A stretch of DNA of 14,611 bases from assembly GCF_003334255.1 (NCBI RefSeq), contig NZ_QOWU01000079.1. One strand, 5' to 3'. The notes under the pieces were generated by a model, which saw nothing but the letters and a program-made list of their open reading frames with translations, searched no databases and was not told the origin of the DNA. Shown here piece after piece: positions 694-2,587 of this stretch; position 1 is the first letter of the stretch; each line of letters opens with the position of its first letter. The stretch is from Escherichia coli (GTDB lineage Bacteria > Pseudomonadota > Gammaproteobacteria > Enterobacterales > Enterobacteriaceae). The position numbers and the translations under genes were made by a program.

Positions 694-1052
694 TTTTTAT
701 TCTTCGGTGCTTTCGGCATTACTGCCCAGTGAGTGATATTGACGTTTTCAAGGTCCCCGACCTGAAATGTCCACAGCCATTCTCCGGTTTCTTTTTGTCC
801 CCAGGTGTACCAGAGAGAACGCCAGCCAATTAGCCAGCCTTCTCCGTTAGCATCAAATAACAGAACACTTTCATTTGCTGGCGGCAGTTCAGCTGACACT
901 GGTATTATTTTGTTTTCCAGTGCCGCACATTTAGCTTCAAGCGCATCGAATTTACGTACCAGGTACTCAGCATTTGTTTCATTCACTTTCAGATCTCGTG
1001 GTACACATTTCCCGCGAAGAAACCCTTCCATTTCGAAAACATTCATGCGCAT
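690..1052 (-). CDS. DUF551-family prophage protein (120 aa)
   Basis: Track ORF; C-terminal Trp-rich region (GEGWLIGWRSLWYTWGQ...ITHWAVMP) typical of DUF551; GGAG 8 nt upstream of ATG at 1052; overlaps the upstream HD gene stop by 10 nt. Confidence 0.6.
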   Translation of the reverse strand: MRMNVFEMEGFLRGKCVPRDLKVNETNAEYLVRKFDALEAKCAALENKIIPVSAELPPANESVLLFDANGEGWLIGWRSLWYTWGQKETGEWLWTFQVGDLENVNITHWAVMPKAPKNKK

Positions 1053-1579
1053 GTGCGTAACTCCGATAACTCGTTAAAGCGCTCCATAAACATCCCGTAG
1101 GCATGGCTCGGAGCCAGTGGAATAACTTTGAACATTTCTGTTGCCGGGATACCTTCCAGTACTGGCCAGAAAGAGCCATCATCAAGCCCGAGATCGCGGC
1201 GTTCGGTTGCCAGCATGATGAGATCGGCATATTTCACAGGCGTGCTCATAACCGGGGGTAACCCGTATTTCTCACGGATTACGGCGTCTATTTTTTCTTC
1301 CATCCGTTTATAGTCAGGAAGAAGGCGTTTCAGTGGAGCGGGAATATCCTGGCAATACGCTTCTGTTGCATCATGCATTAACGCTTCAAAAGCAAATTCC
1401 TGCGGCACCAGCTGGCTGCAAAGCACCGCATGTTGGGCGACACTGTAGAAGTGAGAAAGATGACCGGCAAAGCGGCAGATATTTGAAAGGGAAACCGCGA
1501 TATCGTTAATCACGATGTCGTCTTTATTTATCTTGTCATAATAAAAATGCTTCCCGGAAAAAGTTTTAATAAATGACAT
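1043..1579 (-). CDS. HD-domain phosphohydrolase (YfbR-like 5'-deoxynucleotidase family), 178 aa
   Basis: Start moved to internal ATG at 1579 (MSFIKTF...), which has GGAGAA 6 nt upstream; the track's 23-codon extension lacks an RBS. Contains an H...HD metal-binding signature (RFAGH ... ALMHDATEAY). Confidence 0.7.
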   Translation of the reverse strand: MSFIKTFSGKHFYYDKINKDDIVINDIAVSLSNICRFAGHLSHFYSVAQHAVLCSQLVPQEFAFEALMHDATEAYCQDIPAPLKRLLPDYKRMEEKIDAVIREKYGLPPVMSTPVKYADLIMLATERRDLGLDDGSFWPVLEGIPATEMFKVIPLAPSHAYGMFMERFNELSELRTCA

Positions 1580-1621
1580 TTTGTTCTCCACGTTATATGC
1601 GCTGCACCGCTCTGAATTTTG

Positions 1622-1671
1622 ATTGCAGCAATCCAGCCCATTTAACATGGGATGATTGCTGCAATTTTTTT
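1622..1671 (+). terminator. nested hairpin (12-bp perfect outer stem ATTGCAGCAATC/GATTGCTGCAAT, inner 5-bp stem) followed by T7 on the + strand
   Basis: Seen directly in the sequence between the rdgC stop (1670-1672) and the HD gene start. Orientation is that of a + strand intrinsic terminator, i.e. antisense to the flanking genes; it could instead be a protein-binding dyad or an RNase III-type processing site. Confidence 0.4.
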
Positions 1672-2587
1672 AAGTTGTTGGATTTTGGCTTTTATCTTCT
1701 TTGTAAGAAAGAAGGTCACACATCAAATTAACTACCTTGCTGAATTGGAAAAGGTCAGCGCCAGTCTGATGACGCCACTGGAATGCTTTATCATCTTCAT
1801 CATTAAATGTCTGAGATTGAGTATTGATGCGCGAAAAATGGAAATTTTCGGTAAGAATGAAGGTCACACCGCAACCGGATAACTCCATTTTATCAGCAGT
1901 GAAACTACTACTAAGGCTATCGGCCAGTTCGCTTTGAATTGACTCATGCTCAGCTGAGTAGCGAATAATTTCCTTTTGATCTGCGTAGCGTGATAGCTGA
2001 ATATAATTTCCGACAGTGAATCCTTCAAATGCATTGGCTGCACCATTGATGTAGTTATTCAGGCGTGTAGTCAGTCCATTCTTGATATCACTGATGTTGA
2101 TTGTTTCTGTTTTCACTGAACCGACAACCTTAATCAGCATTGCGCATACCATACCGGCTATTATTTTATTGGTTGTGTTGATTACCAATAATTTCTCATC
2201 AGTGCTGTACAATGCAAGAATCAGAGTAGACTTAACAAATGCCTGTTTGCATAGATCTACTCGTACGTTATCAATAATGGCCAGTCGTTCGGCACGCTTT
2301 AATTTATTCCCGGACATATTTTCGATTGTTTGGATTCGAGAATTAGCTTCTTTCATGACGACATGTCGGGGAATTATTTTCTGATCATGACGGATTACCA
2401 TTGCGTACCCACCAGATATCGGAGTTACCAGTTCACCAGTGACAGGATTCTCTACAAAAGAGGACCGTGAAAATTCTGTTTCCCCGATTTCAGAATAAGG
2501 GAGTTCGAGAAGATGACCTTCAATAGCCTGTATACTAGGTAATGTTGCTCGGTACACAATTGCGTTACGAAATTTTGGTAATTTCAT
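1670..2587 (-). CDS. rdgC: recombination-associated protein RdgC homolog (305 aa)
   Basis: Start moved to internal ATG at 2587 (MKLPKFRNAIVYRA...) with GAGGAAAA RBS; the track's 50-codon TTG extension is rejected. Length and several blocks (FRNAIVYR; IIPRHVVMKEANSRIQTIE; KLKRAERLAIIDNV) parallel E. coli RdgC (about 303 aa). Confidence 0.8.
   Translation of the reverse strand: MKLPKFRNAIVYRATLPSIQAIEGHLLELPYSEIGETEFSRSSFVENPVTGELVTPISGGYAMVIRHDQKIIPRHVVMKEANSRIQTIENMSGNKLKRAERLAIIDNVRVDLCKQAFVKSTLILALYSTDEKLLVINTTNKIIAGMVCAMLIKVVGSVKTETINISDIKNGLTTRLNNYINGAANAFEGFTVGNYIQLSRYADQKEIIRYSAEHESIQSELADSLSSSFTADKMELSGCGVTFILTENFHFSRINTQSQTFNDEDDKAFQWRHQTGADLFQFSKVVNLMCDLLSYKEDKSQNPTT

Follow-up and report, generated by a model that had tools for sequence, protein, structure and literature searches.

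RdgC homolog and YfdR as the first protein genes of a putative early-left operon in an Escherichia coli lambdoid prophage

The leftward early region of the prophage

We analyzed a 14,611-nucleotide (nt) stretch of Escherichia coli DNA (RefSeq assembly GCF_003334255.1, contig NZ_QOWU01000079.1; hereafter the window), which is a lambdoid prophage of the SfV/mEp460/cdtI/CPS-53 type. Within it, the interval 1043-2587 had been predicted to hold an RdgC homolog and an HD-domain hydrolase as the first genes of the leftward early operon. The minus strand of 258-3985 carries a compact leftward gene set: a cI-like repressor gene, a gap, and then five open reading frames (ORFs), the last four of which abut or overlap at their starts and stops (Table 1). 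The predicted interval is exactly the first two of these protein ORFs, and both genes lie there on the minus strand as proposed. Their identities as an RdgC homolog and YfdR are practically certain. They are already public in RefSeq, and the finding is in itself ordinary; its consequences as given are small, in that it fixes the identity of two genes already named.

Table 1. Features of the leftward early region, in window positions (aa, amino acids)
Feature	Position	Strand	Basis
cI-like prophage repressor, helix-turn-helix and S24 LexA-type autopeptidase domain, 230 aa	3293-3985	-	phrog_4, phrog_6201
Intrinsic terminator right after the repressor gene, AGCCACC-AGAA-GGTGGCT then UUUCAUU	3254-3271	-	Terminator scan
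Operator-like palindromes OL1 and OL2, TTGC-N7-GCAA	3198-3212 and 3222-3236		Motif count
Putative leftward promoter pL, TTGCAT (3212-3207), 17 nt, TATCTT (3189-3184)	3184-3212	-	Sequence reading
Structured leader RNA, ~170 nt, pseudoknotted	2970-3139	-	Covariance model R1, covariation test
Hairpin of 12 base pairs (2756-2718) then UCUUUUU, ~125 nt upstream of rdgC	2711-2756	-	RNA fold
rdgC, RdgC homolog of the phage clade, 305 aa; leads the protein genes of the leftward operon	1670-2587	-	Pfam, phrog_724, fold
yfdR, HD-domain phosphohydrolase, DnaA-binding protein (K-12 property), 178 aa	1043-1579	-	K-12 identity, phrog_318
yfdS, 120 aa, start overlaps the end of yfdR	690-1052	-	phrog_583 (1.9e-81)
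Two small overlapping operon genes (490-693 and 258-497)	258-693	-	phrog_1226 (2e-42), phrog_1344 (1.2e-52)

The first protein gene encodes a divergent phage RdgC

The ATG start of rdgC is preceded by GAGGAAAATAGA. Profile searches upheld the predicted family: the protein matched Pfam PF04381 at 6.7e-31 (residues 6-280, model positions 3-278 of 298) and phrog_724, 'exonuclease recombination-associated', at 4.3e-77, and a HMMER sequence search found E. coli RdgC (PDB 2OWL) at 2.3e-9. PF04381 was carried by all 120 of the 120 relatives listed. All NCBIfam RdgC models scored under their cut-offs, the best being NF001464 with 91 bits against a cut-off of 227, and we therefore regard the protein as a member of a divergent phage clade rather than as an ortholog of the housekeeping protein. 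It belongs to the phage RdgC-like group of PHROG 724, which includes HrdC of P1/P7. The family is kept across Enterobacterales with 28 invariant columns, and Citrobacter and Kluyvera have the closest relatives of the protein (86-90% identity).

An AlphaFold2 model built on 30 relatives reached a pLDDT of 87.7 and a pTM of 0.82. Foldseek matched this model to 2OWL_A (E 8e-20, TM 0.82/0.83) and 2OWY (E 5.9e-19), and the model superposed over its full length on the RdgC proteins of E. coli and Pseudomonas (TM 0.78-0.82, E ~1e-19). As modelled, the protein is a three-domain RdgC fold with base, center and finger/tip. RexA was not among the significant PDB matches of the model. The window protein thus shares with E. 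coli RdgC (2OWL) the Pfam family, full-length coverage and the predicted fold, whereas the window gene is prophage-borne, low in GC content and repressor-controlled and the host gene is a housekeeping gene.

Key residues reported by Briggs et al. (PMC2965237) were mapped on pairwise alignments. In E. coli RdgC, the fingertip residues R97, K98, K100 and K101 and the gate residue F120 are needed for DNA loading and ring closure (PMC2965237). Three of the four fingertip basics are kept in the window protein (K95, K97 and R98 for K98, K100 and K101, with N94 at the position of R97), as are the gate phenylalanine (F117 for F120) and P73, which corresponds to P76. P73 alone of these residues is the same in all 30 relatives (alignment A2).

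Within the phage RdgC clade, several relatives of the window protein (372-385 aa, 37-39% identical) have gained a C-terminal FtsK-gamma DNA-binding domain (PF09397), and a Vibrio phage RdgC homolog is likewise extended (~366 aa). A DNA-bound role of the clade would fit with this. In a search for SOS boxes near rdgC, the motif CTGT-N8-ACAG was not enriched (8 against 5.3 expected), and none was found in the leader.

The second gene is yfdR

The start of yfdR is the ATG at 1579 (PGAP annotation, 178 aa, with a GGAG Shine-Dalgarno sequence) and not the ATG at 1648 of the longest ORF. The protein is YfdR itself: 174 of its 178 residues are identical to those of K-12 YfdR (98%) without gaps, the four substitutions falling at residues 151, 158, 169 and 176. 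The predicted HD-domain hydrolase family was recovered with phrog_318 (1.7e-109) and PDB 2gz4, the HD protein Atu1052 (5.6e-14). The narrower label of a YfbR-like deoxynucleotidase fared less well. The active-site HD..E..D residues of E. coli YfbR align with H69-D70, E73 and D78, and H50 and D119 stand at the spacing expected for an H...HD...D metal-binding motif. Identity to YfbR in the alignment is 23%, however, the Pfam YfbR-like match is only 7.1e-5, and the protein fails the NCBIfam 5'-deoxynucleotidase equivalog NF003009 (19.9 bits against a cut-off of 122). RefSeq labels the gene yfdR 5'-deoxynucleotidase.

K-12 YfdR binds DnaA domain I in a Phe46-dependent manner and interferes with DiaA and DnaB binding (Noguchi and Katayama, 2016, PMC4776307). 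Its nucleotide affinities are quoted second-hand in that paper, from Zimmerman 2008, as far below YfbR's. Of the two properties ascribed to YfdR, deoxynucleotidase activity is thus the less well founded, because DnaA binding is documented and the nucleotide affinities are reported to be low.

The original prediction had also allowed that the two genes modulate nucleotide pools or counter nucleotide-based defences. In such a role YfdR would hydrolyze deoxynucleoside monophosphates (dNMPs) or nucleotide signals, and RdgC would block RecA-dependent sensing, against host defences early in the lytic cycle. The intact HD catalytic residues, the PHROG/NCBI family label of dNMP phosphatase or 5'-deoxynucleotidase, and the presence of both genes in the early operon are consistent with such a role. 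The low reported affinities argue against it, as does the finding that deletion of yfdR left the cytidine monophosphate yield of an engineered E. coli strain unchanged. The five operon proteins gave no PADLOC matches at E <=0.01, our literature search found nothing that ties RdgC or YfdR to defence, and yfdR occurs mostly in prophages that lack rdgC, so that the two are not a co-selected pair. We consider an anti-defence or nucleotide-pool function rather unlikely.

rdgC lies behind a terminator, operators and a putative promoter

The repressor matched phrog_4 at 2.1e-62 and the CI-like repressor family phrog_6201 at 1.3e-44, and its gene is an XRE family regulator in the RefSeq annotation. 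Its C-terminal S24 region gave weak NCBIfam matches under the cut-off (UmuD-type PRK10276.1 at 1.9e-07, and signal peptidase I). The RNA of the terminator that follows the repressor gene folds at -12.3 kcal/mol (z = -4.7), and none of 200 shuffled sequences folded as well. Between this terminator and the leader lie two palindromes of the form TTGC-N7-GCAA. Between the repressor and cro-like genes the motif recurs, once as an exact copy at 4006-4020 and once with a single mismatch at 4054-4068. The window holds five exact copies against 0.68 expected, a number that 0/200 shuffles reached, and three of the five fall in the two regulatory regions.

The putative promoter pL has its -35 element inside OL1 and a predicted start near 3177. 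Its architecture is the same as that of the putative pR (TTGCGC-17-TAATAT), and other loci of the same immunity type also have TATCTT before the leader RNA. A Klebsiella phage with a different repressor, different operators and a different immunity type has its elements arranged alike: the cI stop is followed in turn by a terminator, operators, TTGACC-17-TACATT, the leader RNA and rdgC. This layout speaks for rdgC being part of the repressed early-left transcript and not of the cI transcript. We consider it likely that rdgC and yfdR belong to the pL operon. The comparison with the slot that holds N in lambda, made in the original prediction, is borne out to the extent that both genes lie downstream of what appears to be an operator-controlled leftward promoter.

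RdgC homologs in lambdoid early-left regions were recorded by Casjens and colleagues in 2025 (PMC12315714), who found them in 'a few lambdoid phages' just left of cI, the same place as here. Because rdgC often stands there in the same orientation as cI, these authors tentatively suggested a RexA-like lysogenic function, in which RdgC is co-transcribed with the repressor and serves superinfection exclusion or biases the choice between lysis and lysogeny. The RexA fold resembles that of RdgC (PMC11077077), and lambda RexA, which is distantly related to RdgC in structure and binds DNA non-specifically, likewise adjoins the immunity region (PMC11077077). RexA, however, shares its transcript with cI and has RexB as its partner, whereas the window protein is a full three-domain RdgC by its model, which matches RdgC over the full length and RexA not significantly; it has no RexB-like partner, and the next genes are yfdR and yfdS. 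In the window, the strong terminator, the two operators and the promoter-like site, ~600 nt before rdgC, put the gene in the pL transcript rather than in that of cI, and the Klebsiella relative keeps the order of these elements. A RexA-like function is thus quite unlikely. The position behind terminator, operators and promoter would make rdgC an induced early gene and not a lysogenic gene of the RexA kind, and for the lambdoid RdgC of the window and its Klebsiella relative this corrects the literature.

A structured leader RNA precedes rdgC

The gap between pL and rdgC is ~590 nt long and has no conserved ORF. It contains a structured RNA, so that the statement in the original prediction that the two genes are the first of the leftward operon is true of the protein-coding genes only. 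They would not be expressed first, since the 590-nt leader with this RNA and a terminator-like hairpin precedes them.

The structured RNA is composed of the hairpins P1, P4 and P5 (loop GAAGAGA) and two variable hairpins. Two pseudoknots, formed by the loop-to-strand pairings GCACAU:AUGUGC and CACC:GGUG, are almost invariant, and a compensatory pseudoknot change, AACC:GGUU, is present in the window itself. A structure drawn by hand, with P1, P4, P5 and the two loop-to-strand pairings, was tested on 39 sequences. Standard pairs made up 98.1% of the cells, and 10 pairs showed compensatory changes (67 cells). None of 500 shuffles reached these values, and the slid controls gave at most 47% pairing and at most three compensatory pairs. 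The covariance model R1 found one copy in the window (131.5 bits, E 1.7e-36).

The element was present in 1375 of the 5426 complete E. coli genomes used for all genome counts here, and in 255 plasmid places; RefSeq has no annotation under it. An exact 14-mer of the leader, CCGGAATGTGCAAG, occurred in at least 120 IMG/VR contigs, of which ~100 contained the full element of ~170 nt, among them 43 that are under 96% alike. Early promoters of several immunity types have the RNA directly downstream of them; it also stands in P7 between tRNA-Ile and ban (the P1/P7 ban leader) and in Uetakeviruses upstream of tRNA-Arg. The first genes after it are YfdP-like in 22 loci, rdgC in seven, and many unrelated genes in others. 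A literature search by sequence words of the leader found nothing relevant.

Several other identities of the leader were rejected. A protein gene was dismissed because the minus-strand ORFs differ between the window and mEp460 and PGAP annotates nothing; a short 'MRAF' ORF after P5 is not kept open from one class of 3' flank to another; and an indel in the window, which is otherwise ~98% identical there, breaks the frame of mEp460 gp37, an ORF of the other strand. The mEp460 annotations gp36 and gp37 (7434-7577 and 7619-7987, equivalent to window ~2646-3195, plus strand) run antisense to the leader and the structured RNA, and they are probably spurious as judged from the sequence comparison. 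A tRNA or another known RNA was rejected, since ARAGORN found no tRNA and Rfam nothing at E up to 10.

The put RNA of HK022 was also considered. Both are structured RNAs, encoded in cis, that lie at the 5' end of a lambdoid pL transcript. The leader RNA has ~170 nt with pseudoknots, whereas put has ~70 nt with two stems; the window holds a single copy and no putR equivalent; and the leader RNA is not confined to lambdoid pL regions, as it is also seen in the ban leader of P1/P7 and at Uetakevirus tRNA genes. Identity with put was rejected, because model R1 had no match in the putL region of HK022. There is a short local likeness between the leader and put, CATGCGTCG-NN-AGCG, for which chance is possible, and HK022 putL (~740-810, minus strand) has CCATGCGTCGGGAGCGCGG, which resembles ACATGCGTCGTTAGCGGTC at the 3' arm of leader P1 (window ~3105-3125). 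The latter resemblance may be due to chance, and homology is unsupported by the covariance model.

Between the structured RNA and rdgC lies the 12-base-pair hairpin of Table 1, which folds at -22.5 kcal/mol (z = -2.4). It is identical in mEp460, and SfV, SfII and SfIV keep the segment upstream of their yfdP. The 3' side of the hairpin reads CGCUCUUUUUACAA, which resembles boxA. By its sequence the hairpin is terminator-like, and a terminator and a Nus-factor site are both candidates.

No N homolog was found among the window ORFs scanned. For the N-less phages of the mEp460_4F5/LLS type, put-like RNA antitermination has already been proposed by specialists. Because of this proposal for the phages of the group and because of the downstream hairpin with its U-tract, processive antitermination is our leading hypothesis for the leader RNA, though a doubtful one; a put-like antiterminator and a processed small RNA (sRNA) are the candidates. 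In its widest form, which we put forward as distinctly speculative, the leader RNA would be the true first element of the operon and would represent a new class of put-like processive antiterminators that act in cis and need no protein. It would replace N in phages of the SfV/mEp460 type, serve also the P1 ban operon and the early transcripts of Uetakeviruses, and license read-through of the hairpin into rdgC, yfdPQ or ban. If the antiterminator reading is true, the RNA could explain early antitermination in lambdoid phages without N. The larger potential value of the locus is in this unannotated RNA, which shows strong covariation and is carried by a quarter of the complete E. coli genomes; it is the item that deserves a study of its own.

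The rdgC cassette and its distribution

From the repressor onward the window is ~98% identical to mEp460; ~25 nt short of the first start codon this identity ends and the two diverge fully. The slot upstream of yfdR, occupied by rdgC here, holds yfdP and yfdQ in mEp460 and K-12. The rdgC cassette (window 1501-2500) has a GC content of 39-40% against 47-50% in the flanks, which suggests recent acquisition from a source of lower GC content. We found yfdR in 2971 of the complete genomes and the rdgC type of the window in only 24, 20 of them at 99% identity or more. On these comparisons, the rdgC cassette is a recent and rare swap for yfdP-yfdQ.

The original prediction had treated the two genes as a pair. 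The counts speak against a functional pair conserved at this position, and the arrangements in other phages differ: in the Klebsiella phage the slot is filled by rdgC, with no yfdR and with unrelated genes next, and the Yersinia phage YeP2 has the order rdgC, small ORF, yfdR. The two are not a co-selected pair, because more than half of the E. coli genomes have yfdR, and the prophages that carry it mostly lack rdgC. Many unrelated first genes follow the shared leader, so that the slot seems to be an insertion site for cassettes in general.

Compared with the yfdQRST cluster in the cryptic K-12 prophage CPS-53, the window has the same order of yfdR and yfdS, each 98% identical in protein (115 of 117 aligned residues for YfdS). 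Here yfdP and yfdQ are replaced by rdgC and yfdT by two other small genes, and the cluster still stands behind an intact immunity region. In K-12, multicopy yfdQRS or yfdQRT inhibits initiation at oriC, and deletion of the yfdQRST cluster has no replication phenotype (PMC4776307).

Since rdgC sits exactly in the slot of yfdP-yfdQ, between the shared leader and yfdR, RdgC might substitute functionally for YfdP-YfdQ in the YfdQRST module and, with YfdR and YfdS, bring DnaA-dependent initiation to a halt, for instance as a coat on oriC DNA. The requirement of the K-12 inhibition for yfdQ together with yfdR and yfdS or yfdT (PMC4776307) would fit with this, as would the combination of rdgC and yfdR in YeP2. 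YfdQ is not detectably a cryptic RdgC, however: hhalign gave a probability of 0.2%, and the YfdQ model matched neither the RdgC nor the RexA fold. The slot of the Klebsiella phage, with rdgC and no yfdR, and the variety of unrelated first genes point away from it as well. We consider such a substitution unlikely.

That the two genes are decaying in a cryptic prophage, as passengers that no longer serve a function, is very improbable. CPS-53 is such a prophage, and the deletion of its yfdQRST cluster fits that picture. In the window, however, rdgC and yfdR have intact ORFs and good ribosome-binding sites, rdgC shows at least 99% identity in the 20 genomes mentioned above, the RdgC family is conserved across Enterobacterales, and the same early region is present in plaque-forming phages (mEp460, cdtI and Stx2 phages). 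The occurrence of rdgC or yfdPQ in near-identical early regions is a natural experiment on the in vivo role of RdgC, and it could also probe the biological meaning of the binding of YfdR to DnaA.

Proposed role of the operon

The explanation that we prefer is that rdgC and yfdR provide accessory early functions of host takeover in a mosaic pL operon. We hold it, as a whole, with a little better than even confidence. In the lysogen, transcription of the repressor gene would end at the terminator behind it, and rdgC and yfdR would be silent because the repressor occupies the two operators over pL. Upon induction, RecA-dependent cleavage of the repressor would allow pL to fire. The 590-nt leader would be transcribed first, and transcription would then reach rdgC, yfdR, yfdS and the two small genes; the sequence itself shows this operon structure of closely packed or overlapping genes. 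The RdgC homolog, by its predicted fold and by analogy with the host protein, would form a ring-shaped dimer that encircles DNA non-specifically, and would therefore limit the loading of RecA/RecFOR on replicating phage or host DNA; the biochemistry of host RdgC behind this proposal is summarized in PMC11077077. For RdgC, the modulation of RecA suggested in the original prediction is reasonable as a hypothesis. YfdR, if it behaves as in K-12, would bind DnaA domain I in competition with DiaA and DnaB and would therefore damp initiation at the host oriC, and its intact HD metal site would keep a weak 5'-nucleotidase activity. These particular activities of the two proteins are tentative, and we give them somewhat less than an even chance. 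Cooperation of the phage RdgC with YfdR in shutting down host replication is a weaker proposal.

Several observations weigh against this explanation. The RdgC homolog is only 23% identical to host K-12 RdgC, and no experiment exists on any phage RdgC. In the HMMER alignment, which is weak in this part, Q212, H222 and the essential K227 of E. coli RdgC align with H214, S224 and F229, and among the mutated residues of the horseshoe interface only E218 is kept, as E220; because three of the four interface residues are changed, the dimer geometry could differ. The putative pL is weak by consensus and below the threshold of our promoter scan, and the promoter is therefore inferred rather than shown. 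Because the terminator-like hairpin lies between pL and rdgC, expression of rdgC may need antitermination. The replication effect of YfdR in K-12 needed multicopy yfdQ plus yfdS or yfdT, and its authors allow for an artefact of overexpression (PMC4776307); yfdQ is absent from the window operon.

Other genes and RNAs in the window

The two small genes at the end of the operon are found in the same order in mEp460 and E. coli SCU-172. On the plus strand, at 5237-5438 and inside a long ORF (4890-6038), Rfam detected isrK (58.9 bits) and C4 antisense RNA (80.7 bits), accompanied by a weak a1/b1 target site. These RNAs lie upstream of a Rha/antirepressor domain that begins at about residue 211 of the 382-aa ORF. 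From its sequence, the region looks like a C4-controlled antirepressor module of the P1/P7 immI type, and the true start of ant is probably downstream of the two RNAs. Farther along the plus strand, at 12336-12541, there is a full-length match to the sRNA family STnc100 (143 bits).

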